From the NCBI GenBank assembly GCA_963665465.1, contig OY762226.1, positions 4,741,177-4,805,176 of the forward strand: DNA of 64,000 nucleotides. Reading direction: 5' to 3'. A program made the position numbers and the translations under genes. Of this stretch, positions 3,525 through 52,029 are shown piece by piece. Positions within the stretch are counted from its first letter, which is position 1, and each line of letters starts with the position of its first letter. Below the pieces are notes generated by a model. That model worked only from the letters and a program-made list of their open reading frames with translations. It searched no databases and was not told the origin of the DNA. The DNA is from Vicinamibacterales bacterium (GTDB lineage Bacteria > Acidobacteriota > Vicinamibacteria > Vicinamibacterales > UBA8438).

Positions 3525-5564
3525 CTATAGCGGCAGGCGGAAGGCGATGTACTCGCCCGAGTAGGTGCGTCCGCTGATGGCGAGCACGATGTACTGCCGC
3601 CCGTCCGCCAGGTAGGTCATCGGCGAGCCCGACTGCGGGGCCGGCATGAAGACCGCGCCGACCTCCCGGCCCGTCGCCTTGTCATAGGCCCGGAGCATGG
3701 CGCCCCGCCCGGCCTCCGTCCGGTGGTAGCCGCACTCGCCCATCACGACCAGCGTCCGGGTGACGAGCGGGCCGATCAGGTGGATGCACCGCTCGCCGGT
3801 GCGCGGAATCTCCAGGTCCCGCAGCGCGGGGTGATTTCGAACGCGGTCGGGCGTGTCGCCGTGCGGCGTCTGCCACAGGATGTCGCCGCGGTCGAGGTCG
3901 ATCGCGGACAGGCGCCCGTAGGGCGGCTTGACCAGCGGCAGCCCGCGCACGTTCAGGTCGCGCAGCCCGCCGTGGCCGACGCCGTACTTCGTCGTTCCCT
4001 TCACGTAGCGCATGTCCGAGACGTCCGGCCCGGGCGTCGGGATCAGCTCCCAGGAGTAGAACCCGGTCCGTGACGGGACGTACAGGATGTGGGTCTCGGG
4101 GTCGTAGCCGCCGCCGGGCCAGTTCGTGCCGCCGCTGCCGGCGCCCAGCCCGAGCGTGGCGATCGGACCGCCCTCGCGGCTGACAACCGGCGGCGTGAAG
4201 AGGGGCCCGAGCCGGTAGCGCGACACCAGCTCGACGGCCTCGGCGCGCAGCTCGGGCGTGAAGTCGATCAGGTCGTCGATGGATGCGCCCTGCCGGTCGT
4301 ACGCCGGCGGCCGGGTGGGGAACGGCTGGGTCGGGGAGTACCACTCGCCCGGCACGTCGCCCTGCGGCACCGGCCGCTCCTCGATCGGCCAGACGGGCTC
4401 GCCGGTGACCCGGTCGAAGACGTACAGGAACGCCTGCTTGCCGGGCTGCGCAACCGCCTTGATCGCCCGCCCGTCGACGGTGATGTCGGCCAGGATCGGG
4501 GGGCTGGCCATGTCGAAGCCCCAGATCGGGTGGTGCACGAGCTGGAAGTGCCACAGCCGCTCGCCGGTGAGCAGGTCGACCGCCACCAGGCTCTCGCCGA
4601 AGAGGTTGTCGCCCGGCCGGTGGCCGCCGTAGTAGTCGCCCGACGGCGTCTCGACCGGCAGATAGACGATGCCGAGGTCCGCATCGGCCGAGATCTGTGT
4701 CCAGACGCCGTTGTTGCCGTTGGTCCCCCACGAGTCGTTCAGCCAGGTGTCGGCGCCGAACTCGCCGGGGCGCGGGACGGTGTTGAAGACCCACAGGCGC
4801 CGGCCGGTGCGGATGTCGAACGCCTGCACCAGGCCCTTGGTGTTGTTGTGCGTCCGCGGCGCCGGGGCGTCGGCGAACGTGCCGCCCACGACGACGACGT
4901 CGCGCGCCACGGTGGGCGTGGCGTGCAGGCCTATCTCCCCGCTGACGAGGTCGATGGGGCGGCCGTCGCCCACGACGGCCGCCGCCTTGAGGTCGACGAT
5001 CCCGCCGTCGCCGAAGCCGGGGTCCCGCAGGCCGGTGGCGGCGTCGAGCGCCACGAGGCGGAACCCGAGCGTGACGTAGAGGATGCGGGCCTCCGTGCCG
5101 TTGGTCCAGTACGCCAGCCCGCGCCCCGACAGCAGGCGGGGCGCCTGCGCCGCCCGCTCGCCCTCGTGCTCGCTGTGCATCCACAGCAGCTCGCCGCTGG
5201 CGGCGTCCAGCGCCACGACCGCGCGCCGGGTGCCCGCGGTCGCGTAGAGCACCCCGCCGGCCATGATCGGCGTTCCCTCGAGCTTGAACTCCGGGGCCGG
5301 GCCGAGATTGTCGGTCTTGAAGCGCCAGGCGATCTCGAGCTCGCCGAAGTTCGACGCGTCGATCTGGTCCAGCGGCGAGTAGCGCGTGTGCCCGGCGTCG
5401 CCGCCGTAGCTGGGCCATTCGCCGGCCGTGGTGGTGAGCGGCCGCCACGCCTGGCCGGCCGCGTTCGCCGCCAGCAGACCGAAGCCGAGGGCGAGCACGA
5501 TCGCGCGCGGGGTCACGGGGCGCTCCCCGCAGGTCGGTAGCCAGTCTTGCATGGCCCGTATCAT
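3525..5564 (-). CDS. PQQ-dependent (quinoprotein) dehydrogenase, exported
   Basis: ORF 3525-5822, trimmed to MIRAMQDW at 5564. Signal-like AIVLALGFGLLAANAAG is followed by EWPSYGGDAGHTRYSPLDQIDASNFGELEIAWRF and repeated beta-propeller W/G motifs. Confidence 0.8.
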   Translation of the reverse strand: MIRAMQDWLPTCGERPVTPRAIVLALGFGLLAANAAGQAWRPLTTTAGEWPSYGGDAGHTRYSPLDQIDASNFGELEIAWRFKTDNLGPAPEFKLEGTPIMAGGVLYATAGTRRAVVALDAASGELLWMHSEHEGERAAQAPRLLSGRGLAYWTNGTEARILYVTLGFRLVALDAATGLRDPGFGDGGIVDLKAAAVVGDGRPIDLVSGEIGLHATPTVARDVVVVGGTFADAPAPRTHNNTKGLVQAFDIRTGRRLWVFNTVPRPGEFGADTWLNDSWGTNGNNGVWTQISADADLGIVYLPVETPSGDYYGGHRPGDNLFGESLVAVDLLTGERLWHFQLVHHPIWGFDMASPPILADITVDGRAIKAVAQPGKQAFLYVFDRVTGEPVWPIEERPVPQGDVPGEWYSPTQPFPTRPPAYDRQGASIDDLIDFTPELRAEAVELVSRYRLGPLFTPPVVSREGGPIATLGLGAGSGGTNWPGGGYDPETHILYVPSRTGFYSWELIPTPGPDVSDMRYVKGTTKYGVGHGGLRDLNVRGLPLVKPPYGRLSAIDLDRGDILWQTPHGDTPDRVRNHPALRDLEIPRTGERCIHLIGPLVTRTLVVMGECGYHRTEAGRGAMLRAYDKATGREVGAVFMPAPQSGSPMTYLADGRQYIVLAISGRTYSGEYIAFRLPL

Positions 5565-5634
5565 AGCGCCGCGCCCGCCGCGTCCGCCGCCGGGCTCGAG
5601 GGCGACGCCGGGGCTGTATACTGCCGGCAGACCG

Positions 5635-7377
5635 GTGCGAACCCTCCCCGCGGGCGTGCTGCTCGTCGCCGGATGGCTGGTGTTCGGCGTTGCGTCCGCC
5701 GCTGCCGGCGGCGGTGCGCCGCAGCCCCCGGCAGGGCTGGTCACGCCCCCCGCACAGTTCGTCCCCGACGTCACCGAGTCCGAGGCCGCTCTGGAAGCGG
5801 TGCAACGGAGCCTCGACGACACCCTGGTCGCCGGCCTGCGGACGTTCGACTGGGCGACGGCGGCCGGCGGGCTGTCCGACGGGTTCCGCGGCCGCTTTCC
5901 GGCGCCGGACGCCGGGCGCGTCGTCGCGGACGGCCGCCTCGCCGTTCGCCGCTACGCGCCGGCTGCCTCGCAGCCGCTGGACCGCGAGGCGTTCCTGGCG
6001 GTGCTGCGCCGCCACACCGCCGGCTGGACCGCCGTCGAGCGCGCCTCGTGGCACGCCTTCGAGTTCCTGCTGGAGCCGGCGCGCGACCGGGCGTTCGTCA
6101 AGGCGCACCTGCAGCTCGGCGGACCGGATCCGGCCGGCGCGCGGTCGGTGCTCGACGCCACGGTGCACGCCGGCGTGAGCGAGGTGGCCCCCGGCCGCTG
6201 GCGTCTCGAGCGGCTCGACGTCGTCGAGGCGACGGTGGTCCGCAGCCCGCATCCGCCGTTCCGGGAGATCACCGATGCCACCGGGTTCCATTTCAACCGC
6301 TCGGAGGCCAACCGCGAGCTGCGGCAGGCGATCGTGGACACGCGCTCGAGCCTCGTCGATTCCGGGCTGGCCGTGGTCGACTGGAACGGCGACGGGTTCT
6401 GGGACCTGCTGGCGACCGAGTCGATGAACCAGGGGGTGCTGTTCCTCAACGACGGCCGGGGCGGCTTCGTGCGCGCGGCGCTGCCCTACGACGACCCGCG
6501 GCTGATTCCCTCGCAGGCCCTCTTCGTCGACCTCGACGGCGACGGTCTGGAGGAACTGGTCGGCAACCGGGTGCTCTACAGCGCGGGGCGCGGCTCGATC
6601 GGCCTGCACACGCGCCGCGACGGCCGCTGGCAGTTTCTCCCCGACGCGCTCGAGTTCGACAATCCGTCGGGCGCGCAGCGCGCGGATGCCCAGCCGCTGA
6701 CCGCCGGCGACGTGAACGGCGACGGGCTGATCGACATCGTGGTGGCCGGCTACGAGACCGACCGGTCGCGCGATCCGGAACGCTTCAACCGGGTGGACGC
6801 GCGGGACGGCGCGGACACCCTGCTGTTCATCAACCGCGGCAATCTGCGGTTCACGGAGGAATCGGACGCGCGCGGCATATCCGGCACGCGCTACACCTAC
6901 GCCGCGCACCTCTTCGACTTCGACGGCGACGGCGACCTCGACCTCTTCGAGGGCAACGACTACGGCGCCAACGAGCTGTGGGACAACCAGGGCGGCGCGT
7001 TCCGCGCGCTGACGGATCATCCGCTCGCCGGCGACGCCGCCAACACGATGGGCATTGCGGTCGCCGACTGGGACAACAGCGGCCGCTGGAGCCTGCACCT
7101 CTCGAACATGTACTCGCACGCCGGGCAGCGCGTAGTTCGTCTGGCGCAGGGTCTCGCCGGCGCCATGCGGGAGCGCCTGGGACGACTCGCCGCCGGCAAC
7201 CAGCTCTTCGTCCAGGGGCCGGACGGCTGGGACGACCGGGCCGCGGCGCTGGGCGTGAGCGACGCGGGCTGGGCCTGGGCGTCGCTGTTCTACGACCTCG
7301 ACAACGACGGCGACCAGGAGCTGTTCGTCACCAACGGGAACACGAGTCACCGCGACCCCGCGGCGCCCGACTACTGA
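5635..7377 (+). CDS. FG-GAP/VCBS-repeat protein; N-terminal part of a longer frame that is interrupted by TGA 7375-7377
   Basis: ORF 5428-7377. Repeats include DWNGDGFWDLL, DLDGDGLEELV, GDVNGDGLIDIVV, FDFDGDGDLDLF and YDLDNDGDQELFV. The start is uncertain: GTG 5635 precedes the hydrophobic segment VRTLPAGVLLVAGWLVFGVASAAA, while ATG 5551 would overlap the divergent PQQ gene. Confidence 0.75.
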   Translation: MRTLPAGVLLVAGWLVFGVASAAAGGGAPQPPAGLVTPPAQFVPDVTESEAALEAVQRSLDDTLVAGLRTFDWATAAGGLSDGFRGRFPAPDAGRVVADGRLAVRRYAPAASQPLDREAFLAVLRRHTAGWTAVERASWHAFEFLLEPARDRAFVKAHLQLGGPDPAGARSVLDATVHAGVSEVAPGRWRLERLDVVEATVVRSPHPPFREITDATGFHFNRSEANRELRQAIVDTRSSLVDSGLAVVDWNGDGFWDLLATESMNQGVLFLNDGRGGFVRAALPYDDPRLIPSQALFVDLDGDGLEELVGNRVLYSAGRGSIGLHTRRDGRWQFLPDALEFDNPSGAQRADAQPLTAGDVNGDGLIDIVVAGYETDRSRDPERFNRVDARDGADTLLFINRGNLRFTEESDARGISGTRYTYAAHLFDFDGDGDLDLFEGNDYGANELWDNQGGAFRALTDHPLAGDAANTMGIAVADWDNSGRWSLHLSNMYSHAGQRVVRLAQGLAGAMRERLGRLAAGNQLFVQGPDGWDDRAAALGVSDAGWAWASLFYDLDNDGDQELFVTNGNTSHRDPAAPDY

Positions 7378-9003
7378 CCGTTCTTCTGGCGACAGGTTGT
7401 CGCCGACGCCGAAGCGATCGAACGGGCATCGCCGTTCGCGCCGGTGGCGGTCGGGGAGCGGCGTGCGTTCCGCGGCTCGTTCAGCGGCTACGAGCGCGAC
7501 CGGCTCTTCTACAACGCGGGCGGGGCGCTGGTCGGGAGCGCGTACGTCTTCGGGCTCGACGGCGACCACGACGGCCGCGCCGCCGCGCCGGTGGACGTCG
7601 ACGGCGACGGCGACCTCGATCTCGCGCTGCTGACCCTGCGCGGCCTGCGGCTGTTCGAGAACACGTCGGACGAGCACGCGCGGCCGGAGACCCGCCGCTA
7701 CGCGCGCGTGCGGCTGGCGGCCACGCGCTCGGCAGCTCCCGCCCTGGGCGCCGTGGTGACGCTGGAGGCGGGCGGCGCCACCCGCCGCGACTACGTGCGG
7801 ATCACCGAAGGTTTCCAGACGCAGGTGCCGCTCGATCTGCACTTCGGCCTGGGCGCCGCCGGGCGTGTCGAGCGCCTCACGGTCGCGTGGCCGTCGGGCG
7901 CCCGCGAGACGTGGAGCGACCTGCCCGCGGACCGGCTGCTGCGCGTGGTGGAGGGCCGCCCGGAGGTGGGGGTCGACGTGCTGCCGCGTTGGCCGGAGGG
8001 CACGCGGCCCAGGCCGGTCGGCCCGCCGTCGACCGCGGTGGACCTGCCGCGGCTGGGGGGCGGCGCCGGGCCGCTGACGTCCGGCGGACGGCCCGCGGTG
8101 GTCAACTTCTGGGCCCCCTGGTGCGCGCCGTGCAACGTGGAGCTGCCGCAGCTCGTGGCGCTGGCGGGACGCTACGGGGGCCGCGTCGACTTCGCCGGCG
8201 TCAGCGTGGAAGTGGACGATCTGGACTCGGTCCGCGGCATGGTCCGCGACCTGGGCGTGCCGTATCCGCAGTTCCTCGCCGACGCACCGGTGATGGAGCG
8301 CTTTTTCGGCGGCGCCGACGCGGCGGCGCTCCCCTCGACGTACGTGTTCGACGCCCGGGGCCGCCTGCGGCGCCAATTCCGGGGTCCGATCACCGAGGCC
8401 GACCTCGACGCGCTGCTGCAGTCGCTGCGCGACGAGGGCCTGTTCGAGGCGGACCTCGAGCTGGCGGCCCGGTCGGCGGCCCGGGCGGGCGACCTCGAGC
8501 AGGCCATCGCGCACTACCGCCGGCTCGCCGCGCGCCGGCCGGGGAGCGCGCAGCCGCTCTACCGCATCGGCGTGGCGGCGCTGGCGCTGGGCGACGTGGA
8601 GCAGGCCCGCGACGCGCTGGAGCAGGCGGTCAGCCGCGCGCCGGCCCACCCGCTGGCGCAGTTCCACCTCGGTCTGGCGCGGCTGCGCTCGGGGCAGCCG
8701 GGGCAGGGGTTCGCCAGCCTGCAGGCGTCGCTGGCGCTGGCCGGACGGGACCCGGCCGCGTTGACGAGCCTGGGCAGCGCGGCGGCGGCGGCGGGGCAGC
8801 TGTGGCTCGCGGTCGACGCGCTGTCGCTGGCGGTGGAGGCGGATCCCGCCTCGTCGTCCGCCTGGCTGGGCAAGGCGCGCGCGCACCGTGCCCGGCGGGA
8901 GCTCGACCGCGCGGCGGCCGCCTACCAGCAGGCGCTGGCGCTCGAGCCGGAGAACGCGGCGGCCCGGCGCGAGCTGAGCGGCCTGACTTCCGACCAGCGG
9001 TAG
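7378..9003 (+). CDS. Same-frame continuation: ASPIC/UnbV-like region, TlpA/ResA-like thioredoxin domain and TPR repeats
   Basis: The ORF track starts at GTG 7444, but the frame is open from 7378 and is the same frame as 5428-7377. The region right after the TGA reads PFFWRQVVADAE. Further motifs: VDVDGDGDLDLAL, VTLEAGGATRRDYV...WPSG, the redox motif VVNFWAPWCAPCNVELPQL, then TPR-like helices. Confidence 0.75.
   Translation, partial: PFFWRQVVADAEAIERASPFAPVAVGERRAFRGSFSGYERDRLFYNAGGALVGSAYVFGLDGDHDGRAAAPVDVDGDGDLDLALLTLRGLRLFENTSDEHARPETRRYARVRLAATRSAAPALGAVVTLEAGGATRRDYVRITEGFQTQVPLDLHFGLGAAGRVERLTVAWPSGARETWSDLPADRLLRVVEGRPEVGVDVLPRWPEGTRPRPVGPPSTAVDLPRLGGGAGPLTSGGRPAVVNFWAPWCAPCNVELPQLVALAGRYGGRVDFAGVSVEVDDLDSVRGMVRDLGVPYPQFLADAPVMERFFGGADAAALPSTYVFDARGRLRRQFRGPITEADLDALLQSLRDEGLFEADLELAARSAARAGDLEQAIAHYRRLAARRPGSAQPLYRIGVAALALGDVEQARDALEQAVSRAPAHPLAQFHLGLARLRSGQPGQGFASLQASLALAGRDPAALTSLGSAAAAAGQLWLAVDALSLAVEADPASSSAWLGKARAHRARRELDRAAAAYQQALALEPENAAARRELSGLTSDQR
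7388..7404 (+). promoter_or_regulatory. 17-nt hairpin 10 nt 3' of the in-frame TGA (SECIS-like candidate)
   Basis: GGCGACA-GGT-TGTCGCC forms a perfect 7-bp stem with a 3-nt loop. The context is TGA CCGTTCTTCT followed by the hairpin. Confidence 0.45.
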
Positions 9004-9017
9004 TCCGTCGCCCACGC

Positions 9018-11795
9018 ATGGACGTGCCCGCCAGACGCAATCGCGGCAGTCGCAAGCGATCCACTCCGGCGCGCGCACCGCGCGCATCCGCCCGTCGTCT
9101 GCTGGAGCGGGCGTGGGAGCTTCTCCACGCCGGAAACGGGCGCGAGGCGCTCGACCTGATCCGGCAGGCGCGGGACCGGAACGACAGCCTGGCGGGGCTG
9201 CCGCTGGTGTCGTTCTGCGCTTCCATCCAGCGCGCCCGGCATCTCACGGCCAAAGGCATGGAGAAGGAAGCGGCCACCATGCGCGCCCGGGCCGACCACT
9301 ATCGAGCGTCGATTCGCCTGCCGGCCTTGTCGGAGGACGATTGGGTGCAGTACGTCCGCTACCTGGACGGCGAGGACGCCCTGGCGACCTATGCGGGCCA
9401 CCTGGCCGGTGGGGCGCCCATGCAGCGGGTGGAGCAGGTGCTGGCGGATCGACTGGTAGTCCAGCGGTGCTGGAAGGGGCTCGACGCCTTCGACGAGAGC
9501 CACCCGCTGCGCCGGGACGTCGCGGAGGTCGGCCCCGGTCTCGAGGCGATGGACGCCGGCGACTGGGCACGGGCCGCCAGCCTGCTGCGGGGCGTGCCCC
9601 GGCGCTCGCCGTTCGCGGCCTGGCGCCTGTTCTGCAAGGCCATGGTCTGTTTCGGCGCGGGCGATGACGACGGGCTGCGCCGTACCCTCGATCTGCTGCC
9701 GGCCGACTTCGCGCTGCCCCGTAAGGTGGCCGAATGCCGGCGCCTGATAGCGCGCGACGGCGGCGGCAACGGGCACGCGCGGTCGTCGCCGGAGCCGGGA
9801 AGCGAACGGGGGTCGCTGACGGCGCTGGCCGGCGAACTGAAACGGGCGCTCCGGAACGGAAACGTGCGTGCGGTTGGGACGGTGATCGAACGTCTGGCCG
9901 ACGCCCTGTATCCGGAGGAGCCGGGTCGGGCGCGGATCGACCTGCTGCAGATCGTGGGGCTGGCAGCGGCGCGGGACCTGTTCCCCGTCGCCGCGTTCGA
10001 AGCGTTGGCGCGGCGTCTGTTGCCCGCCGAGCGGATGAGCGGCGTCCTGGCCCGCATCTTCCTCCAGGGCCAGCAGGTGTCGCCCGAGCTGTGGAACCCG
10101 ATCCCGGCCACGGTTTTCTTCAATGCGCTGCCGGGGGAGTTTCCCCGGGCGGAAGATCAGGCGCTCGCTCGGGCGTGCGTCTTCGAGGCGCTCGCGCGCA
10201 CGGGCCGCGCGGCCGTCCCTCCCGAACTGCTGCCCCCTGACAGGATGCGCGCGCTGGCCGGGCTGCTGGGCCGCCCCATCGAAGTCCCTGAACTGGTCTT
10301 CGTCGAGCTGATGACGGAGAGTCTCGAGGCCGATCCCGACAACCGCGAGGGCTACCTCTTTCTGCTCGATCTGCTGCGCGGACAGACCGCGGGCAAACGC
10401 AGGCTCCAGCGTGTCCTGCAGGACATGGCGCACCGGTTTCCCGACGATCCGACCCCGTGGCTGGAACTGGTCAGCCTGCAGCATTCGAGGAACGCGTACC
10501 GCCAGGCCGAGAGCGCGCTGGCGGAGGCCCGGCGGCGCGCTCCGCACGACGATCGGCTCCTGGATCTGCAGGCTGTCGGTTTCCTCAAGTCCGCCGATCA
10601 GAGCCGCAACAAGGGGCGGTTCGCGCTTGCCACCCGGGACTTGCAGCGCGCGGAAGACCTCGGGCGCGACGCGGTTGGGCTCGTCCTGCCGTCGAAATGG
10701 CTCCTGTTGGAGATCGTGTCCACCGGCACGGATGCGGCCGCGACGGTCACCCGTCGCCTGCAGGGACTGCCGCCTGGCGAGCAGCTTCGGACGCTGGTCC
10801 TGCTGCTGCGGGATCTGCACCGCAACAGCCACGTCAGGAACGTCCGACCGGACATGCTCGACGCCGTGTGGCGCCTGCTGGCCGACAGGGTCTCTCTCGC
10901 CGGCGAGTGTGCTCCGGACGAGATCGTCCGGCTGCTCGAGCCGCTGCCGGTCGAGCTGGGCATCCTCTACGACGACCGGCTGGTTGCCACGAGCCTCGCC
11001 GCCTGGTGGCCCATGCTTCTCGAGCGAGTGGACGGAGAACGCCTGCCGGCCGTCCTGGATATCCTGCTGGAGTGCGGCGGGTGGGCCCAGGTTCGTGCCG
11101 AGATCGAACGTCGGCTGCGGGGCGTCGGGAAGCCCCGGCGCGATCCGCTGCTGCTCTTCTATCTGGCGGTCGTGCGCTACGAGGCGGGCAGCGACCACGA
11201 TTCCCGGCGTTTCCGGGGCGTCCTGAAGGGGGCGGACATCGCCACCCGCGAGCGGTTGCGGACGGCGGCCGCCAGGCTGGCCTGCCACACGCAGGGTCCA
11301 CTGCGCCGCGCTCTGCTGACGTTCGATTTCGAACCGCTGGACGCGCCCGCCCCGGGACTGCCGCCGCTCGATGAGCTGTTGGCGTCGATCGAGGAGTACC
11401 TCGAGGCCGACGGCCCCCCGCTCGAGCGTGACGCGTTTCCGCAGTCGGCGCCACCGGATCCTGACGATCCGTCGCTGATCGAGCGGTTCCGGCTGGTGCT
11501 GACCGAGGGGCCGGCGGACGGGGGGCGCGACGCGCGGCAGGGGATGTTGTTCGATCGACGGCTATACGACGATCTGGACCGCCTGGACGAACTGATCGAC
11601 GACAACCGGTTGCGCGATGAGCCGCGGTCCGTGCTGCAGGAGCTCGGCGGCAACCTGCGGGCCGAACCGGCGGCGCGGCGGGAGCTGGAACGGCTGGCGC
11701 GCGACTGCCGGACCGCCGGTCTCCGTGACAGACTGACGCGGGAGTTGCGGGCCCTGTTGTTTCCCCGCAAGGAGAAGAAACGGCGCCGCCGGTAA
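9018..11795 (+). CDS. 925-aa hypothetical protein, apparently all-alpha/TPR-like with basic termini; first gene of the Hsp70 module
   Basis: This is the real 3' part of shadow ORF 5547-11795. The in-frame ATG at 9018 lies 15 nt after the previous stop. It starts MDVPARRNRGSRKRS and ends FPRKEKKRRRR. I recognise no family. Confidence 0.65.
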   Translation: MDVPARRNRGSRKRSTPARAPRASARRLLERAWELLHAGNGREALDLIRQARDRNDSLAGLPLVSFCASIQRARHLTAKGMEKEAATMRARADHYRASIRLPALSEDDWVQYVRYLDGEDALATYAGHLAGGAPMQRVEQVLADRLVVQRCWKGLDAFDESHPLRRDVAEVGPGLEAMDAGDWARAASLLRGVPRRSPFAAWRLFCKAMVCFGAGDDDGLRRTLDLLPADFALPRKVAECRRLIARDGGGNGHARSSPEPGSERGSLTALAGELKRALRNGNVRAVGTVIERLADALYPEEPGRARIDLLQIVGLAAARDLFPVAAFEALARRLLPAERMSGVLARIFLQGQQVSPELWNPIPATVFFNALPGEFPRAEDQALARACVFEALARTGRAAVPPELLPPDRMRALAGLLGRPIEVPELVFVELMTESLEADPDNREGYLFLLDLLRGQTAGKRRLQRVLQDMAHRFPDDPTPWLELVSLQHSRNAYRQAESALAEARRRAPHDDRLLDLQAVGFLKSADQSRNKGRFALATRDLQRAEDLGRDAVGLVLPSKWLLLEIVSTGTDAAATVTRRLQGLPPGEQLRTLVLLLRDLHRNSHVRNVRPDMLDAVWRLLADRVSLAGECAPDEIVRLLEPLPVELGILYDDRLVATSLAAWWPMLLERVDGERLPAVLDILLECGGWAQVRAEIERRLRGVGKPRRDPLLLFYLAVVRYEAGSDHDSRRFRGVLKGADIATRERLRTAAARLACHTQGPLRRALLTFDFEPLDAPAPGLPPLDELLASIEEYLEADGPPLERDAFPQSAPPDPDDPSLIERFRLVLTEGPADGGRDARQGMLFDRRLYDDLDRLDELIDDNRLRDEPRSVLQELGGNLRAEPAARRELERLARDCRTAGLRDRLTRELRALLFPRKEKKRRRR

Positions 11796-11821
11796 TCTGC
11801 GCCGTGGACGGGAGCAGGATC

Positions 11822-12127
11822 ATGCTTGCCCACTATCTGGTGCTGGGACTGCCGCCGTCGGCGACGGGAGAGGAGATCCGCCGGCGCTACCTCGAGTTGG
11901 TGCGCACGCACCGGCCTGGCCGGGATCCCCAACGCCTGCAGCAGATTAGCGCGGCGTACGAAGCGCTGAAGGACGACCGTGCGCGCGTGAAGACGGCCCT
12001 CTTCGGCATGGCCGCCTACGGCGATTTCGAGCTGGCGCTCGATGCGCTGGTGCAGGCTCGTCCGGTGCGCCGCGAGACGCCCGGCTTGCAGACCCTCCTG
12101 GCGGCGGAGGAGAAGCTGTATGAGTGA
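11822..12127 (+). CDS. Minimal J-domain protein with a non-canonical HPD loop
   Basis: ORF 11804-12127; ATG at 11822. HYLVLGLPPSATGEEIRRRYLELVRTHRPGRDPQRLQQISAAYEALKDDRAR matches the J-domain helix II-loop-helix III pattern. HRPGRD replaces HPD. Confidence 0.7.
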   Translation: MLAHYLVLGLPPSATGEEIRRRYLELVRTHRPGRDPQRLQQISAAYEALKDDRARVKTALFGMAAYGDFELALDALVQARPVRRETPGLQTLLAAEEKLYE

Positions 12128-12788
12128 ACCGGGCGGAGATTGGCGGCAGCGGGCGCTCGACGACTTCCGGCAGTGGCTCGACGCGGTGGCCGAGCAGCCC
12201 CCGGCGCATGAGGAAGCCGAGGCGGCCGACCATGACCTGCGCGATCTGTTCGCCGAGTTTGCCGCGCTGCGGCAGGAGATCCGCCTGCAGAACCGGGAAC
12301 AGGCGCGGGCGGGCCGCGAGCTGGCGGCTGCGGCGGGGCGGCTGGACACGACCGCCCGCCAGGTGGAGCGCGCCGACGAGACGTTGGCGGCGTTCGAGCG
12401 GCGCATCGCCCGAACGGCGGAGGACCGTTGTCTGCTCGAGACCCTGGAGGTGCGTGATGCCCTGGTGCGAGGCCGGCGTGCCGCGGTCCGGTTGCGGGAT
12501 CGACCGCGCCTGTTCGGACGCCCGCCGCGGGGCGTCGCGGGCGTCGTCGAAGGTTACGAGTTGGCTATCGGCCGTGTCGATCGGATGCTGTCGCGGTTGG
12601 ACGTGCGACGCGTGGAGACCGTGGGGCGACGCTTCGACGGGCGCGTCATGCAGGCGGTGGAGGCGCGCCGCGTCGAACGGGTCGGCGACGGCCTGGTGGT
12701 CGAGGAGCTGCGGAGCGGGTTCGTGCGGCACGACGACGTGCTGCGTCCGGCCGACGTCGCGGTCAACCGACGTGACGAGAAAGGGTGA
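12120..12788 (+). CDS. GrpE-like nucleotide exchange factor
   Basis: ORF 12042-12788, trimmed to MSEPGG at 12120, which overlaps the J-protein stop by 8 nt (ATGAGTGA). A coiled-coil N-terminus is followed by [14 protein letters not shown]...[17 protein letters not shown]...[20 protein letters not shown]. Confidence 0.7.
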
Positions 12789-14620
12789 TGCCGGTGGCAA
12801 CCAGGGCGGCGGACGACGACACGGTCATCGGCATCGATCTGGGCACCACGAACTCGGAGGTGGCGATCCTCTCGGACCGGCAGCCCGAGATCGTGAAGGA
12901 GCGCGGCGAAGCCATCCTGCCGTCGTGCGTGGGGCTCGACGATGCCGGCGCCGTCATCGTCGGACGCCAGGTCCGCCAGCAGGCGGTGGCCGCTCCCGAA
13001 CGGACCGTCCTTTCGGTCAAGCGCCTGATGGGCTCCGGGACGCGCGTGCGGATGGGGCAGGAAGCCTACGCCCCGCAGGAGATTTCGGCCTTCATTCTCA
13101 AGGCGCTCAAGGAGCGGGCGGACCGCGCGCTCGGCCGGGACGTGCGCAGGGCGGTCATCACCGTCCCGGCCTACTTCACCGACGCCCAGCGGCAGGCCAC
13201 ACGCGAGGCCGGCGAGACCGCCGGCCTGACGGTCGTCCGGATCATCAATGAACCGACTGCCGCCGCGCTCAGCTACGAGATCGGCGGCACGGGGCGCCGC
13301 ACCCTGCTCGTCTACGATATGGGCGGCGGCACCTTCGACGTCTCGGTGGTGCGAGTGGAAGCGGGCGTGGTCGAGGTTCTGGCCACCGCCGGCGACAACC
13401 AGCTCGGCGGCGACGATTTCGACGCGCTCATCCTCGAGCGCCTCAACACGCACATCGAAACAGGGTTGGGGGTCGAGGATGCCCGCGAGGATCCCCTTCT
13501 GCAGGCGCGCCTGCGGCGGGCGGCTGAACAGGCCAAGATCGAACTGTCGGATCAGCCCTGCGTGCGCGTCGAGGAGGACCACGTCGCCCTGGTGGCCGGC
13601 GAGGCCAGACACCTCACCTGCGAGTTGAGCCGCGCCGATTTCGAACGCGACCTCGAGCCGTTTCTCGACCGCTCCCTGCAGGCGGTGACGACGGCGCTGC
13701 AGGATGCCGGCGTGCGTCCGAGCCAGCTCGACCGGGTGCTGCTCGTGGGCGGCTCGACCCGCATTCCGCGGATCGCCGCCGTCCTCACGGAGCGCCTGGG
13801 GCAGGAGCCGCACGGCGAGGTCGATCCGGATCTGTGCGTCGCGCTGGGGGCCGGCGTGCAGGCAGGGATCGAGATGGGACGGGACATGCAGTCCGTGCTG
13901 GTCGACATCACGCCCTACACCTTCGGCACCAGCGCCTCCGGCGAGCTGTACGGCAGGCCGTACGCCCATGAGTTCGTGCCCCTCATCCGGCGCAACAGCA
14001 AGCTGCCGGCCACCCGGACCGAAGTGTTCTTCACCATGTTCGAGGATCAGCCGCAGGTGGAAGTCAAGGTCTATCAGGGGGAGGATCCGGACGCCCTCAA
14101 GAACGTGGAAATCGGCACCTTCATGTTCACCGGCCTGAACCAGCAACCCGGCGCGCGCGACCAGGGCCTGCTCTGCACCTACAGCCTCGACCTCGACGGC
14201 CTGCTCCACGTCCACGCGCGGGAACGGGCCACCGGCCGGGAGATCCGCGGCGTCGTCGAGAACGCCATCGGGCGGTCCGGCGACGAGGCGCTCGGCGCCG
14301 CCAAGGAACGTGTCTCGGCACTCTGGGGCCTGGCGGGCGTGTCGGATGCAGAGCACGCTGCGGACGCGGCGGCCGGCGACGCTGGGGCCGGTGTCGCGGA
14401 ACCGTCTGCGGCGGCGCCCGCCCTGCCCCCGGACGTGGCCCGGGCAGCCGGGGAAACCCTGGCGCGGGCCGAGCGGGCGCTCGAGGCCGCACCGGCCGCA
14501 GATCGGGAAGAGATGATCAACCTGATGGAGGATCTCCGGGACGCCCTCGAGGAGGCCCGCGCCGCGCGGGCAGCCGAGCTCAAGCGCGAGCTCGACGAGA
14601 TCCTGTTCTACCTGGAATAG
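12785..14620 (+). CDS. Hsp70-family ATPase (DnaK paralog) with an atypical Ala-rich C-terminus
   Basis: Motifs: [78 protein letters not shown]. The start is GTG 12785 or ATG 12788, overlapping the GrpE-like stop. It ends EILFYLE with no EEVD. Confidence 0.9.
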
Positions 14621-14624
14621 CTGC

Positions 14625-14936
14625 GTGGAACGCTGTCCGACCTGCGGGGCCCGGCATGCCGGCGGGCCGTCCTGCCACCGCTGCCGGACGGACCTCCGCC
14701 AGGTGCTGGAGGTCGAACGGTGCGCGGCCCGCCACCGGCGGCTGGCCCGCGCCGCGCTCGATCGCGGCAACCGCGGGGAGGCCCGCGCCCATGCCCGCCG
14801 CGCCTGCGCCCTCCACCGGGCTCGCGAATCCCTGGTTGCACTCGCGCTGGCCGCCCTGGCAGACCGCGACTTCCCGGCCGCGCTGCGACTGTGGCGGGAA
14901 ATTCGGGCCGCTTCCGTTCGGCAGCGGCCCTCGTGA
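14625..14936 (+). CDS. Small zinc-ribbon protein (C-x2-C-x9-C-x2-C) with a helical tail
   Basis: GTG start 4 nt after the Hsp70 stop. Reads MERCPTCGARHAGGPSCHRCRTDL followed by an Ala/Arg-rich helical region. Confidence 0.5.
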   Translation: MERCPTCGARHAGGPSCHRCRTDLRQVLEVERCAARHRRLARAALDRGNRGEARAHARRACALHRARESLVALALAALADRDFPAALRLWREIRAASVRQRPS

Positions 14937-15125
14937 CCGCGAGCGCGTTTCCCCGGTTCACGAACCTGTCCCGTTCCGCTCCATGAGCTCGGGCGGTCGG
15001 CCGCCGTCTTCCGCGACGTCGGCCGGGGTCGCGGCCGAGGGCGTGCGGGTGGAAAATCGCGCGCCGCGGGATTAGACTGCACGAATCGGGTTGACGGCGG
15101 GTCGGCAACCAGAGGAGACGGCACA

Positions 15126-19120: not shown

Positions 19121-19567
19121 TCACGGCCTGCCGGGGTCGAGCAACGGATTGACTGCCCGCACCCTGCCGTACATGCGGTCGTGCTGGAAGTCCTCCGACC
19201 ACAACTCGGCCAACCCGAAGTGTTCGGCGCACGCCCACAGATGCGCATCGAACCACGACAGTCGGTACGCCGCCGCCCCGCGCAGCGCGAGACGCAGGAC
19301 GGCTTCGTTCGGATAGATCATGGGAAACTGCGTCACAATCTGCTCCGCTTCGTACAGGGCGTCGGAGACGGACAGCAAGGGACCGCCCGCGCTCCGGGGG
19401 CGGGTCACGGCCGCCACGAACTCGATCACCACCTGATGCGGGACTCGTACGACGTCGTCGGCCAGCCCTCTGTACAATGCCGCCGTAGCCCGGCGCTGCT
19501 TGTTCGGGAAGCGCGGATCGAACCGGTAGACCAGGATGTTCGTGTCAACGAGCGCGGCCCCGGTCAT
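19121..19567 (-). CDS. vapC: PIN-domain toxin (VapC family)
   Basis: Reads MTGAALVDTNILVYRFD...WFDAHLWACAEHFGLAELWSEDFQH. It overlaps the upstream antitoxin gene by 23 nt. Confidence 0.8.
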   Translation of the reverse strand: MTGAALVDTNILVYRFDPRFPNKQRRATAALYRGLADDVVRVPHQVVIEFVAAVTRPRSAGGPLLSVSDALYEAEQIVTQFPMIYPNEAVLRLALRGAAAYRLSWFDAHLWACAEHFGLAELWSEDFQHDRMYGRVRAVNPLLDPGRP

Positions 19568-19832
19568 ACAGCTCCTCGCGCGACCATCCGCGGTCCCCGT
19601 CCGCCTGCGTCACCTGAGCATCCCGCTGGCGGCGGCACTGGCGGTCTGTCGCCTGGTGGAAGAGCCGGAGTCGCGTTTCGAGGTCGAGGACCTGACGGCG
19701 ATTCCTCGAGGGCGTCACGTGCAGGCTGTCGCCGCCGATAGTCCAGTCGACATCGTCGCCGGGCCGAATGCCGAGCTGGCTGGCGAGCGCCTTCGGCACG
19801 GTGATCTGGAGCTTGCTTGTGACCTTGGCCAT
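19545..19832 (-). CDS. AbrB/SpoVT/MazE-type antitoxin
   Basis: ORF 19545-19868, trimmed to MAKVTSKLQITVPKALASQLGIRPGDDVDW at 19832. Confidence 0.75.
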   Translation of the reverse strand: MAKVTSKLQITVPKALASQLGIRPGDDVDWTIGGDSLHVTPSRNRRQVLDLETRLRLFHQATDRQCRRQRDAQVTQADGDRGWSREELYDRGRAR

Positions 19833-19909
19833 GTCCTTACCATAGCAAGGATCATGTCCTTGTTGCACTGACGGGCTTCGCTCGGTCGCATTCTCCGGCT
19901 ACCTCGGTC

Positions 19910-48351: not shown

Positions 48352-48810
48352 TTGGCTCACCTCGAAACGCGGCCATCGTAGCACGCCGGATGCGGCTGAA
48401 TCGCGCTGCTTCGCCAGAGTTCCTCGGACCTGCGCCGGGGGCGGCCGGCGCGGGTCAACCGGTGTGTCCTGCCGGTCTCTCCCGAGCAGCTCCACGTAGC
48501 GACGCACAGCATCCTCGTCCTCCTTGTCACTGCGCCGTCTCGCGTTCAACGTGCGCCGCCCTCGCAGTGCGCGTCGCCCGAAGCTGCGGGTCAGGGCTGC
48601 GGTCTACGGTCGTCTAGCGTGTCCGCTTGCTCACGCGCGGTCGTTGGTCGTCCGCGCCTCGCTGTCTCGGGCGCGGGGTCGCTTCGGAGCCGGTCTTCCC
48701 ATTTTGGCCCGGTCCCTCATGGCCTGGCTAGGCGCCCGTGCATCCGCTATCATCCAGTCCACCCTCTGCAGATCGGATTGTCCGAACCTCGTGTGTCGGG
48801 TACATTGCCC

Positions 48811-49941
48811 ATGCCGACTCAGCAGCAACTTGATCGCGTCGAGATTCGCCGCTTCCGGGGGTTATCGGACCTCCGGATCGGCGGCCTCGGCAGCTTCAAT
48901 CTTCTCCTCGGCGCCAATGATGTCGGCAAGACGTCGGTCCTGGAGGCGCTCTTTCTGTTGACCGGCGTTGAAAACCTTGGCGTCCCGTTTCACATTCAGC
49001 GCTGGCGAGGCCTCCCTATCGCCGAGTTCGTACACCTCGAGGGGCTGTTTCATCGGCTCGATCCGGATCAGCCCATCGAGCTAGCGGCAGACTCTGGTAG
49101 CCCCGTCGTTCGGCGAACGCTCCAGATTTCTGCGCCGTACACGGAGCTGGAATTGGATCCCGACGCCTCGGCGTCGGGTGGCGGCGGGGATGGCCGCGCC
49201 CGCACTTCGGCCAGTGTCGGTCCGCCCGGCGGCCAGTCTTCTTCGCTGGCCTCCGCGCGTCGGCGACTTCTACGGTACGACGGCACGCTGCAGCCTCGCG
49301 ACGGAGATACCGTGTCGTTTTCCGGCACGCTGCGTCTCCAGGCCGACGGGGTCAAGGTGAAACAGACGAGAGAACCCTCGGACGACCTGACCATTCCCGC
49401 CCGGTACATGTCGCCCTCAATCGCCTACGACGCCTCTGCCATCGGTGAACTGATCGTTCGCAAGGAAGTCGACCGGCTCCGTCGCTTTCTGAAGTTCGTC
49501 AATCCGCGCATCCGGGACATCGCTGTCAGTGGCGATCTCGCGTACTTGGACATTGGTCTTCCCCGGATGATCCCGTTGAATCTGTTCGGCAGCGGCATGG
49601 TCCGTGCTGCCAGCGTCCTCGCTCATTGCATCCTGGGGAACGAGCGCCTTCTCTTCCTCGATGAGCTGGAGAACGGCCTCCACCATGCGGCCCTCCGACC
49701 CTTGCTTGAGGCCCTCTTGGTCTTGATCGGCGAGCACGACATGCAGGCCTTCGTGACGACCCATAGCGTTGCGCTCCTCCAGGCGCTGCTGGACGTGCTC
49801 GGCACTGACCGGTTTGCTTCCCATCGTACCGTTACGAACTGCTACACGCTGCAGCGTGACCGCGAAGGGCATGTCCGCACATACCGCTACGAGTACGAGC
49901 AGTTCGAACACTGCGTGCGACACGGGATCGAGATCCGATGA
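48811..49941 (+). CDS. AAA/ABC-type ATPase (AAA_21/AAA_15-like, OLD/AbiL/PARIS-type ATPase partner)
   Basis: ORF 48619-49941, trimmed to MPTQQQLDRVEIRRFRGLSDL at 48811. Walker A is LLLGANDVGKTSVLEAL, Walker B/D-loop is LLFLDELENGLH, H-loop is FVTTHS. G+C is lower than the flanks. Confidence 0.8.
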   Translation: MPTQQQLDRVEIRRFRGLSDLRIGGLGSFNLLLGANDVGKTSVLEALFLLTGVENLGVPFHIQRWRGLPIAEFVHLEGLFHRLDPDQPIELAADSGSPVVRRTLQISAPYTELELDPDASASGGGGDGRARTSASVGPPGGQSSSLASARRRLLRYDGTLQPRDGDTVSFSGTLRLQADGVKVKQTREPSDDLTIPARYMSPSIAYDASAIGELIVRKEVDRLRRFLKFVNPRIRDIAVSGDLAYLDIGLPRMIPLNLFGSGMVRAASVLAHCILGNERLLFLDELENGLHHAALRPLLEALLVLIGEHDMQAFVTTHSVALLQALLDVLGTDRFASHRTVTNCYTLQRDREGHVRTYRYEYEQFEHCVRHGIEIR

Positions 49942-50486
49942 GCTGGGCGTTGTTCGTAGAGGGCCACTACGACGAGGCGTTTGTCCGATGGCTGTTGGAC
50001 TCTCTGGAGGTCGAAGACGTCCGACTCCACCGTATCGACGGCGGCATCACGAAGCTGCGCTCCGTTGCGAATGAGATTTTCAAGAGCCACGACGTGGGTC
50101 GGCACGTAGCGCTGCTCCTGGATGCCGACACCGATCCGGACAGCACGCGCGAGCAGTTGACGCGAGAAGTCGCTCGACTCGATCTGCCTATCGAGCGTTG
50201 GTTCTTGCTGCCCGACGACGCTGCGCCAGGCAATCTTGAGACGCTGCTGGAGCAGATGGCTCCGGCAGCGCATCGCGCCATCTACACCTGTTTTGACGAA
50301 CACGAGGAGTGTCTCAGAACGGCGGGGTACAGCACTCCGGATCCCAAGGCGCGGGTCTACGCGTACTGTCATGCTATCGGCGCCGAGACCGGGCCGAACA
50401 AAGAATACGCCGATGCACAGCATTGGGACCCTGAGGTCCGCGACCTGGGGCCGCTACGCCGCTTCTTGCGCGGTCTTGCCGGCTGA
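49938..50486 (+). CDS. DUF3226/DUF4276-like, Toprim-like small protein
   Basis: The start overlaps the ATPase stop (ATGA). Motifs: ALFVEGHYDEAFVRWLL (Glu), VALLLDADTD (DxD), WFLLPDDAAPGNLETLLEQM. Confidence 0.6.
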   Translation: MSWALFVEGHYDEAFVRWLLDSLEVEDVRLHRIDGGITKLRSVANEIFKSHDVGRHVALLLDADTDPDSTREQLTREVARLDLPIERWFLLPDDAAPGNLETLLEQMAPAAHRAIYTCFDEHEECLRTAGYSTPDPKARVYAYCHAIGAETGPNKEYADAQHWDPEVRDLGPLRRFLRGLAG

Positions 50487-50590
50487 GCACAGTCCCGTTG
50501 GCCGACTTTCAACGGTCCGCGCCCTGGCGTCTTTCTTGACGTTGCCTCTTTTCGCGGGTCTTCGTGTGTGGCCCAGGAGGCACCTGCGGG

Positions 50591-51718
50591 CTATTCGGCC
50601 GGTATCGCTTTCCGGGTTGCCTCGTACCGCCGGACCGTGGCCTTGATTCGGTCTGCGTGGCTGAAGATGTCACTGATCGACTCGATCGCGACCCGGTCTT
50701 CGACCTTCTGCTCGTTCAACAGGCCAATCTTTTTCTGCGTCTTGTTGAAGTACAGTCGACATATGGGCTGTCGGTTCGTGTTGTCCAGCAGGATTGCGCA
50801 CAGGCTCTTGCCATCGCGGATGACCACCCTGTTGGGTGAGACCTCTTCGCTGAGAATCGCGGTCACGGCGTAGAAGGCCTGCCATTCCTCCTCGGTCGTG
50901 ACGATGCCCGTCTCGGTTCCGCTGGATCCCGCGGTCTCTTCCGCGACCGTCTCGGTCGGCACCACAGGCTCCTCGTGGTCAGTGCTCGCCAGGGCGGACT
51001 TCAGCTTGTCGCTGATACGCTTCGCCACGAACTGGTGGAGCGCCTTCTTTGTAGCTCGCGTGAACTGCTCGATCACCGCCTTGGTCTTCACGCCTTCGTA
51101 GACCTGCGCCGCGAAGTGCCGGACGAACGCCTCGGACGGATCGGTCCACTCGGCGGTGAGCAGCCGCAGGACCTCGCGCGTGTACTTGAGATCCTTGGCC
51201 GTGCTCAGAATCTGGTCGAGGTTGAACGAGCTCTTAGTGAATCGCTTCAACTCGTCGACGTCGATTCCGTCGACGTCGAGCATGTTGATCTCAAGGAACG
51301 GCCGCGCGTCCATCTTGTTCTGCTCGTCGATGTCCGAGTAGAATCGGTAGATGACGCCGTCGGTGAGCACGCCGAACCGTGCCTTGGCTACGCTGAAGTA
51401 CCGGTAGAGTTGCGAGGCGGGCTCCTTGCCCAAGTCGACCCCATAGTGCTTGCACTCGAACAGCATGATCGGGTCGGCGTTGCGGAAGATCGCGTAGTCG
51501 ACCTTCTCGCCTTTCTTCGTCCCGACGTCGGCGACGAACTCCGGGACCACTTCGGCCGGATCGAACACGTTGTACCCCAGCACGTGGTTGATGAACGGCA
51601 TCACGAGGGCGGTCTTGGTCGCCTCCTCGGTCTTGACGTTTTCGATCCGCTGCCGGATCCGGCTCGACATCTCGCGTAGCCGATCGGCCAAGTCCATGCC
51701 TTCGAGCGATTGAATCAT
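50591..51718 (-). CDS. HsdR_N-type (PD-(D/E)xK-like) nuclease-domain protein with an uncharacterised C-terminal domain
   Basis: ORF 50591-52063, trimmed to MIQSLEGMDLADRL at 51718 with GGAAGGAG upstream. Motifs: EEATKTALVMPFINHVLGYNVFDP...EKVDYAIF...IMLFECK. The lines I counted are 48-53% G+C. Confidence 0.7.
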   Translation of the reverse strand: MIQSLEGMDLADRLREMSSRIRQRIENVKTEEATKTALVMPFINHVLGYNVFDPAEVVPEFVADVGTKKGEKVDYAIFRNADPIMLFECKHYGVDLGKEPASQLYRYFSVAKARFGVLTDGVIYRFYSDIDEQNKMDARPFLEINMLDVDGIDVDELKRFTKSSFNLDQILSTAKDLKYTREVLRLLTAEWTDPSEAFVRHFAAQVYEGVKTKAVIEQFTRATKKALHQFVAKRISDKLKSALASTDHEEPVVPTETVAEETAGSSGTETGIVTTEEEWQAFYAVTAILSEEVSPNRVVIRDGKSLCAILLDNTNRQPICRLYFNKTQKKIGLLNEQKVEDRVAIESISDIFSHADRIKATVRRYEATRKAIPAE

Positions 51719-51784
51719 CGGACAAGAGCTCCTTCCCGTTACCGAACCTGCGAATCGTAGACCACCGGCGTCCAGTGACGCCAG

Positions 51785-51925
51785 ATCAGCCACTGCTGCG
51801 CGAACCGCTACATCCATGTGCCGGCGGTCGAGGCGAACGCTGCCGTCCATCAGGTTGCGCAACGCGGCGTAGGTGAATGCGGCCCCGAGGCGCAGGAGGC
51901 CCGCGGCCGCGGGCCCGGGCTTGCC
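51785..51925 (-). pseudogene. Decayed duplicate of the 5' coding end of the MFS transporter gene
   Basis: cagccactgctgcgcgaaccgct(a)catcca(t)gtgccggcgg... aligns with 54242-54385 at roughly 85-90% identity by eye, with a 1-nt indel. It translates as GPAAAGLLRLGAAFTYAALRNL, versus GPAAAVLLRLGAAFTYPAFRNL in the intact gene. Confidence 0.75.
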
Positions 51926-52029
51926 TGCTGGCCGGATAGTGTGCCGAGTCAACCGCGGTTCGCTCGAGAAGGACGTGATCATCGTGCCGTCGAACCGCAG
52001 CCAGGCCTGGCACGTACACGCCGCGGCCG

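Follow-up and report, generated by a model that had tools for sequence, protein, structure and literature searches.

We have analysed a 64-kb stretch of the genome of a Vicinamibacterales bacterium (assembly GCA_963665465.1, contig OY762226.1), hereafter the window, which carries between positions 9018 and 14936 a cassette of five co-oriented genes on the + strand. These genes, which we have called G1 to G5, cover ~6 kb and encode a large helical protein, a short J-like protein, a GrpE, an Hsp70 and a small zinc-ribbon protein. The open reading frames (ORFs), coordinates and spacings given in a preliminary description of this DNA, made from the sequence alone, are all present: G1 and G2 are separated by 26 nt, G2 and G3 overlap by 8 nt, G3 and G4 overlap by 4 nt, and a gap of 4 nt separates G4 from G5. 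The ~6-kb unit is passed on, duplicated and transferred horizontally as a whole, and it very probably represents a dedicated Hsp70 module, distinct from the housekeeping one, whose specific partner is G1. The features discussed below are the following (TPR, tetratricopeptide repeat; AF2, AlphaFold2; pLDDT, predicted local distance difference test; NBD and SBD, nucleotide- and substrate-binding domains).

9018..11795, + strand: G1, a 925-aa TPR-type alpha-solenoid that defines the family, very probable partner of the Hsp70 (AF2, Foldseek, Pfam)
9018..9089, + strand: polybasic disordered N-terminus of G1, residues 1-24 (pLDDT <50)
11352..11552, + strand: disordered acidic linker of G1, approximately residues 779-845 (pLDDT 30-50)
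11733..11792, + strand: C-terminal tail motif of G1, LTRELRALLFPRKEKKRRRR, conserved at the extreme C-terminus
11822..12127, + strand: G2, a J-like protein of 101 aa whose residues 4-55 have a J-domain fold (Pfam DnaJ, 36 bits)
11912..11920, + strand: degenerate HPD position of G2, R31-P32-G33 (alignment with E. coli DnaJ)
12120..12788, + strand: G3, a 222-aa GrpE-type nucleotide exchange factor (Pfam GrpE)
12785..14620, + strand: G4, an Hsp70 of 611 aa composed of NBD, linker and SBD-beta, its lid being shortened and containing an Ala-rich insert (Pfam HSP70)
14597..14617, + strand: C-terminal tail motif of G4, EILFYLE, conserved across phyla
14625..14936, + strand: G5, a protein of 103 aa made up of a zinc ribbon (C4, C7, C17, C20) and four helices (AF2)

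With a G+C content of ~72% the window contains long spurious ORFs in all frames, so that the length of an ORF is no proof of a gene. For the five genes of the cassette there are Pfam matches above the gathering cut-offs (DnaJ 36, GrpE 62, HSP70 452 and TPR_19 26.5 bits), full-length homologues (more than 200 for G1, more than 160 for G5) and an order and spacing kept in ~65 loci. All are under purifying selection, with ratios of non-synonymous to synonymous substitution (dN/dS) of 0.15-0.5, the comparison of paralogous copies giving 0.25-0.45 across the five genes, and the start codons chosen for the window match those of the homologues. Within the operon no internal promoter-like site was found, and a terminator is suggested by one weak match only, at 11136-11153 within G1, which is fewer than in shuffled sequences.

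The G4 protein belongs to the Hsp70 superfamily (PF00012, 452 bits against a cut-off of 20.6, E = 3e-135) and scores below the NCBIfam equivalog cut-offs for DnaK (479 versus 648 bits for NF001413, 472 versus 822 for TIGR02350). Its best sequence matches in the PDB and in NCBIfam are DnaKs, and it is 38% identical to the DnaK of E. coli and 32% to HscC. When aligned with DnaK it keeps K70, E171, D194, T199, D201, R167, N170, T173 and the VLVD linker. The Ala-rich C-terminus ending in EILFYLE that had been noticed from the sequence is real. A three-way alignment with DnaK and HscC shows two deletions like those of HscC, one covering DnaK 76-101 and the other the 209-213 loop, which holds the J-contact residue D211. 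An 8-aa insertion in loop L1,2 of the SBD-beta and the shortened lid are of the HscC type as well, and with them G4 has all four structural features listed for this class (two deletions, L1,2 insertion, short lid; PMC8215388). In other respects G4 is not like HscC: a GrpE is encoded in its operon, the GrpE signature loop missing from HscC-type proteins is retained (DnaK 290-295) and DnaK is the closer relative in sequence. The tail of the protein is the same in all orthologues that we have aligned, 64 of 64 following the pattern [KR]xELxE[IL]LFY[LI], and it recurs in distant members of the family as ...EEILFYIGDE or ...EDLLFYLE. In the window Hsp70 the EILFYLE motif is preceded by an Ala-rich low-complexity stretch.

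The GrpE nature of G3 is supported by PF01025 (62 bits against 25.8), although the protein lies under every NCBIfam equivalog cut-off for GrpE. Its 8-nt overlap with G2 is kept in most loci, across phyla. Judged from these sequences the operon encodes a complete Hsp70 system, in which the ATPase site, linker and SBD of G4 are intact and G3 is its own GrpE; the other three proteins, G1, G2 and G5, are specific to the cassette.

The second gene had been described as a mini J-protein. The size (~100 aa), the J fold (PF00226, 36 bits against 27.8, residues 4-55) and the lack of G/F and zinc-finger regions all stand, and no client-binding domain is present either. What is missing is the HPD tripeptide: H33-P34-D35 of E. 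coli DnaJ falls on R31-P32-G33 of the window protein, with KYHPDRN paired with THRPGRD. In other lineages this position reads PPS or PPG, and in the distant members TPE or PPE, so that the loss of HPD is family-wide and the proline is the only residue of the tripeptide that the family has kept. In the absence of this motif we refer to G2 as a J-like protein rather than a J-domain protein proper. The C-terminus carries a conserved 'PGLxxLL' segment, the orthologues across loci are 57-96% identical to the window protein, and NCBIfam gives a weak match (E = 4e-4) to the ActJ/AtcJ model.

Profile searches and structure prediction had been proposed for the two proteins that do not belong to the usual Hsp70 team, G1 and G5. 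The 925-aa G1, which had been thought to be all-helical and basic-ended, proved to be both. Its AF2 model (mean pLDDT 84) has ~50 helices and no strands, and the tandem helical repeats form a superhelix, which makes the protein a TPR-type alpha-solenoid with a large family of its own. After the disordered residues 1-24 the solenoid occupies residues ~25-775 and is followed by the disordered linker (~779-845) and a small C-terminal helical domain with a basic tail. The best Foldseek matches in the PDB were Ski3, Ctr9, TPR subunits of IFT-A, Naa15 and subunits of the APC, with E values of 1e-6 to 1e-4 and low TM-scores, such as one expects of flexible superhelices. At the sequence level Pfam recognises one TPR_19 only (residues 465-519), and the G1 profile found nothing at E<=1 among the PDB sequences.

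Both termini of G1 are polybasic. The K/R-rich N-terminus (e.g. MAKKKKKK...) is kept throughout the family, whereas the linker is the most variable segment of the protein and is acid-rich in the consensus of the distant members; outside it no hypervariable segment was found between paralogous copies. At the other end the family shares the consensus LSREA-x-x-[IL][LF][FY] with basic residues behind it, which is kept even among members only 20-35% identical, in which the remaining C-terminal domain diverges. The tail is a candidate docking or Hsp70-binding motif.

The last protein, G5, has the C-x2-C-x9-C-x2-C motif that had been noticed behind the Hsp70, and its four cysteines are invariant in 63 sequences. 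In the AF2 model (pLDDT 91.6, predicted TM-score 0.77) the zinc ribbon takes up residues 1-23, and the four helices that follow form two TPR motifs, an addition to what could be seen in the sequence. The best Foldseek matches were a consensus TPR and the TPR domains of CHIP, FKBP51/52 and Hop (TM 0.55-0.62), none of them significant (E>0.1). No Pfam or NCBIfam family corresponds to G5. We have also considered it as a homologue of the DnaJ zinc finger or of Zim17, and rejected this, as Pfam gives no support and there is no zf-DNL signature.

A way to see whether the five genes belong together is to follow them through other genomes, as had been suggested for Acidobacteriota and other phyla. Using a pattern scan derived from the G1 alignment on one genome per GTDB species we have collected 75 loci from ~60 assemblies, which belong to at least seven phyla or classes (Vicinamibacterales, Latescibacterota, Binatia, Alpha- and Gammaproteobacteria, Spirochaetia and Dehalococcoidia). 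The order G1 to G5 is the same in ~65 of the 75, and most of the others are found at contig ends, apart from truncated or insertion sequence (IS)-interrupted copies (loci L013, L069, L070 and L074). What lies around the cassette is different in each group: flanking genes are shared within a taxon only, no sixth conserved gene accompanies the five across taxa and no upstream leader is shared between phyla, leaders being lineage-specific. The edges are sharp, and when the window is compared with other Vicinamibacterales the similarity at the DNA level extends from ~9021 to 14919-14938 and ends there.

Several genomes carry more than one cassette, four in CAXXVU02 (where L009 and L010 may be a single copy doubled by assembly overlap) and at least seven in CBDHGC01. 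Such intragenomic copies share exactly the cassette plus a leader of 135-330 bp, at 93-97% identity. Some copies are decaying. The Hsp70 gene is frameshifted in L009/L010, L022 and L062, G1 is interrupted in L069 by a repeated IS-like element, and in L070 and L074 it is truncated. In L013 a G1 gene stands without G2-G5 behind it. The repeated element of CBDHGC01, probably an IS, is at least ~650 bp long and is scattered over L069 (9660-11596), L011 (1050-1702), L070 (5636-5839) and L013 (5954-6598).

The Hsp70 sequences are 65-81% identical between phyla, with the maximum between Gammaproteobacteria and Binatia (81%), whereas the copies within Rhodobacterales share 61-70%. An identity that is higher between phyla than within one order points to horizontal transfer.

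The leader of the intragenomic copies in Vicinamibacterales is non-coding and conserved. It extends over ~135 bp upstream of G1 in L006-L021 and over ~330 bp in L005/L007/L011/L014/L019, and contains the motif ...ATATCGTCA...CCTCGACGGTC... and a promoter-like TTGAAC-N18-TAACAT. Neither the window copy nor the cassettes of other phyla have this leader. Just upstream of the leader, at ~7760-7860 in L006, L015 and L021, the C-terminus of a RelE/ParE-like toxin (...RIVYEILHEVLVVLVVRVAHRREVYR) can be read by eye from the alignment. Our search for a leader, promoter or operator common to all cassettes gave neither a sigma-70-like site nor an RNA family. In the window a gene for an ASPIC/UnbV protein with thioredoxin-like and TPR regions stops 14 nt before the start of G1, which leaves this copy without its own leader or promoter. 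This gene and that of an FG-GAP/VCBS repeat protein preceding it (5428-9003 together) form an arrangement common only to the closest relatives, L001-L003.

Well beyond these loci, the family is large and easily found. An exhaustive profile search gave 212 G1 representatives (clusters at 50% identity) at E<=1e-30 and 428 at E<=1e-10, and a profile of distant G1 proteins run against a word-indexed database returned six proteins. The names of the G1 and G5 homologues in the databases are all 'hypothetical' or 'tetratricopeptide repeat protein'. We have inspected four of the distant members (L076-L079), one of them from a metagenome-assembled genome (MAG) of Desulfamplus. In L076 and L078 G1 is followed by a J-like protein of ~100 aa, GrpE and HSP70, with a zinc-ribbon protein behind them in L076. 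The other two contigs are short: L077 ends after the J-like gene and L079 shows the J-like gene and a cut next ORF. In L078 (7827-12257, the Desulfamplus MAG) the zinc-ribbon gene is absent, and in its place there is a PD40/Tricorn/PA14 protein of more than 2800 aa with faint aspartic-protease matches.

The members closer to the window protein come almost wholly from MAGs of typical sponge-symbiont lineages, with names that include COS, RHO and Langseth. Such names and such a mixture of phyla are typical of high-microbial-abundance sponges (PMC13087572; PMC8163846). Among 241 million JGI metagenome records only four loci were detected, one of them in MKWU01, a metagenome of the sponge Aplysina aerophoba. 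The close subfamily thus appears restricted to the sponge habitat, an assignment that we have drawn from the MAG names and not from metadata.

Two other regions of the window are worth describing. About 4 kb downstream of the cassette, on the - strand (19121-19868), there is an overlapping toxin-antitoxin pair, consisting of a VapC-like toxin with a PIN domain and an antitoxin of the MazE/AbrB type. Farther away, an island of low G+C (48619-52063, 0.62-0.65 versus ~0.72) has genes for an ATPase of the AAA_15/AAA_21 type (AbiEii/OLD-like) and for a DUF3226 protein, with that of an HSDR_N (type I restriction) protein on the other strand; it looks like a defence-type island acquired horizontally. 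Outside the cassettes, neither the 64-kb window nor the fetched loci contain a canonical dnaK or any other Hsp70, the remainder of the genome being outside the scope of this search.

What is this cassette for? That it is a self-contained Hsp70 module and not a housekeeping one had been the central claim of the preliminary description, and the scores below the DnaK cut-offs, the strict synteny and the presence of multiple, partly decayed cassettes all speak for it. Several copies, some of them in decay, are a poor fit to an essential housekeeping set. Going one step further, we favour with moderate confidence an orthogonal Hsp70 machine, horizontally spread, which has the G1 solenoid as its dedicated client or adaptor. 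The co-chaperone interfaces appear to have diverged, G2 being without HPD and G4 without the D211 loop; this would set the machine apart from the housekeeping DnaK-DnaJ-GrpE, and it would then have to carry its own partners. With an exchange factor and targeting proteins of its own the cassette would become transferable in a plug-and-play fashion. G1 would be the sole candidate client or adaptor within the unit, and the Hsp70 cycle might assemble, disassemble or switch the conformation of the solenoid, or of a complex scaffolded by it. G2 and G3, translationally coupled, could tune ATP hydrolysis and ADP release, targeting or regulation could fall to G5 and G2, and the cycle would be reset by G3.

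How the partners find each other is a more tentative matter, and the specific mechanism by tail motifs is in our opinion possible but rather doubtful. Recognition would take place through short linear motifs in place of a classical J-domain. DnaK generally binds a hydrophobic core with basic flanks, as found in the G1 tail. With its hydrophobic LLF, its basic flanks and the disordered acidic linker, the G1 C-terminus would resemble an Hsp70 substrate site, while the EILFYLE tail of the Hsp70 may bind in the TPR grooves of either G1 or G5, in the manner of eukaryotic EEVD-TPR docking. Several points weigh against the machine that we favour. G5 has two TPRs only, versus three in the carboxylate clamps that bind EEVD, and its Foldseek matches have E>0.1. 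A J domain without HPD may not stimulate the ATPase, in which case the Hsp70 cycle would be non-canonical. The roles given to the tail motifs, and to G1 as client rather than adaptor, are hypothetical. In addition, cassettes that multiply, decay and move between lineages behave as accessory or conflict modules typically do, and less like a simple aid to protein folding. If the boldest version is put together, that is, an Hsp70 machine working without the HPD mechanism, targeted to TPRs by the EILFYLE and LSREAxxLLF+ tails, (dis)assembling a scaffold and possibly serving sponge symbionts as a switch in conflict or host interaction, we regard it as unlikely as a whole. If it were true, bacteria would have their own equivalent of the EEVD/TPR or clathrin-uncoating principle of eukaryotes.

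The same behaviour of the cassette would suit a chaperone-gated conflict system directed against phages or other mobile genetic elements, in which the solenoid would sense a signal of the invader and the Hsp70/GrpE/J-like cycle would set the threshold of activation, a scheme already put forward for 'ternary' systems of NTPase and chaperone. There is a precedent in the GAP1-N2 GTPase systems, in which HSP70 and GrpE are recruited along with proteins fused to DnaJ or TPR (Kaur et al. 2020, PMC7159879), selection is relaxed (omega about 0.3-0.45), and it is known that sponge symbionts carry many defence genes (PMC5099237, PMC5649159). The 148 non-redundant neighbouring proteins include at least eight transposases, two integrases, four AAA_21/AAA_15 (AriA/PtuA-like) ATPases and one Cas1, but the majority are ordinary metabolic genes. 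None of the five proteins contains an effector domain (nuclease, protease, TIR or pore), and neither the cassette nor its flanks provide a GTPase or FNIII partner. PADLOC-DB 2.0 returned nothing for G1, G2, G4 and G5, and for the GrpE only a coiled-coil match to LmuB (E = 4e-5) without much meaning, while PHROGs had no informative match for any of the five. The high conservation of the proteins across phyla, as in the 65-81% identity of the Hsp70, and the restriction of the variation in G1 to its disordered linker, with no hypervariable region, also weigh against it, and we give this explanation a modest chance. Another possibility is a part in the interaction of sponge symbionts with their host. 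G1 could be a 'eukaryote-like' TPR protein, with basic termini resembling nuclear localisation signals, that is kept export-competent by its private Hsp70 and acts on the sponge host. The origin of the close subfamily in MAGs named after sponge-symbiont lineages and in the A. aerophoba contig, the rarity of the cassette in the JGI records (the four loci mentioned), the polybasic ends of G1 and the enrichment of TPR and other eukaryote-like repeat proteins in sponge MAGs (PMC8163846) are all in keeping with this. However, the proteins have no signal peptide and the cassette no linked gene of a secretion system, the habitat has been taken from MAG names rather than metadata, and the operon of the distant members occurs in MAGs of Desulfamplus and Dissulfuribacterales and in unrelated metagenomes (as judged by lineage names only), all of which renders this possibility quite improbable.

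A more prosaic view would be that of an extra, stress-inducible operon of the housekeeping DnaK/DnaJ/GrpE type in which G1 and G5 are unrelated passengers. Many bacteria have several DnaK paralogues (PMC13580251), a GrpE is present, and G4 has a normal SBD-beta and has lost none of the catalytic or allosteric residues. Passengers would hardly be co-inherited with G2-G4 in essentially all loci, the very distant ones included, and the J protein without HPD or a substrate-binding domain, the missed equivalog cut-offs and the decay of copies also make this very unlikely. The sharp edges of the ~6-kb unit and its occurrence in four to at least seven copies per genome in differing contexts bring to mind, finally, a self-mobilising element in which one of the proteins, e.g. 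G1, supplies a novel function in recombination or transposition, given that the repeated unit contains no recognisable transposase or integrase. Yet neither terminal inverted repeats nor target-site duplications were evident at the aligned ends, no nuclease or recombinase fold appears in the proteins, the collections of plasmids, phages and viruses (PLSDB, INPHARED and IMG/VR) do not contain G1, and the IS elements found nearby can account for the duplication; we find this last idea scarcely credible. The dedicated Hsp70 module with G1 as its partner is the explanation that we retain.

To place the cassette among known systems, it must be said that bacterial Hsp70 proteins were sorted in a 2021 review into DnaK, HscA and HscC (PMC8215388). 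The preliminary description had taken the five-gene arrangement to be uncharacterised, and indeed neither the full-text literature searched nor the recent Hsp70 reviews consulted describe it. The family that it defines is large, coherent and easy to recognise. Its HPD-less J-like protein raises the question of what triggers ATP hydrolysis. A full private set of co-chaperones, a built-in candidate client or adaptor and tail motifs suited to peptide-binding tests make it useful experimentally, and it could serve as a model of how Hsp70 systems become orthogonal and are re-targeted. Transfer across phyla and amplification in sponge symbionts suggest an accessory function that can be selected in that habitat.

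The canonical DnaK-DnaJ-GrpE system shares with the cassette the logic of Hsp70, J and GrpE, the catalytic residues, the linker and the fold of the SBD-beta. The cassette differs in having G1 and G5 as obligate additional partners, a G2 without HPD, and multiple, transferred copies. In the GAP1-N2 conflict systems of actinobacteria and firmicutes HSP70 and GrpE are found with FNIII proteins fused to DnaJ or TPR (PMC7159879). These and the cassette are both accessory clusters with private Hsp70, GrpE and J-domain or TPR parts, but the cassette has no GAP1-N2 GTPase, FNIII or effector-associated domain, and neither a GTPase nor FNIII is recurrent in its flanks. The short J-domain protein AtcJ of Shewanella belongs to the cold-adaptation operon atcJABC, is reported to have a functional J-domain and works with the housekeeping DnaK (PMC6715715). 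AtcJ and G2 are alike in size (~95-100 aa), in having a J domain with a short C-terminal extension and in being encoded in an operon with function-specific partners, and they differ in that G2 has no HPD and comes with its own Hsp70.

Eukaryotes offer parallels in the binding of the Hsp70 tail by the TPR domains of CHIP and Hop, in the uncoating of clathrin by Hsc70 and auxilin, and in the presequence translocase-associated motor (PAM) with its J-like Pam16, Mge1 and Zim17. Homology between these systems and the cassette is limited to generic folds, and a carboxylate clamp in G5, with its two TPRs, is only conjectural. Even so, the C-terminal tail of the cassette Hsp70 is also conserved and its operon also encodes TPR proteins, the G1 solenoid also carries a hydrophobic motif on a flexible tail, as does the clathrin heavy chain with its QLMLT, and the combination of a GrpE, a J-like protein without HPD and a small protein with a zinc ribbon recalls that of the PAM motor.

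The closest characterised analogue is the hscC locus of E. coli (ybeQ-ybeR-djlB-ybeT-ybeU-djlC-hscC). HscC is GrpE-independent, whereas the cassette encodes its own GrpE; DjlB and DjlC are class C J-domain proteins of ~480 aa (DjlC being annotated as the co-chaperone of HscC), whereas G2 has 101 aa and no HPD; and the Sel1 proteins of the hscC locus stand against the 925-aa solenoid G1, with a DUF1266 partner that the cassette lacks. In the K-12 chromosome (676000-690000, our locus L080) two proteins annotated with Sel1 repeats (YbeQ and YbeT) and two DUF1266 proteins lie beside DjlB and DjlC, a layout that parallels that of the cassette. HscC is non-essential, and its sporadic distribution has been attributed to horizontal transfer; the distribution of the cassette is likewise sporadic. 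In both cases a specialised Hsp70 paralogue is found beside dedicated J proteins and TPR-like repeat proteins.

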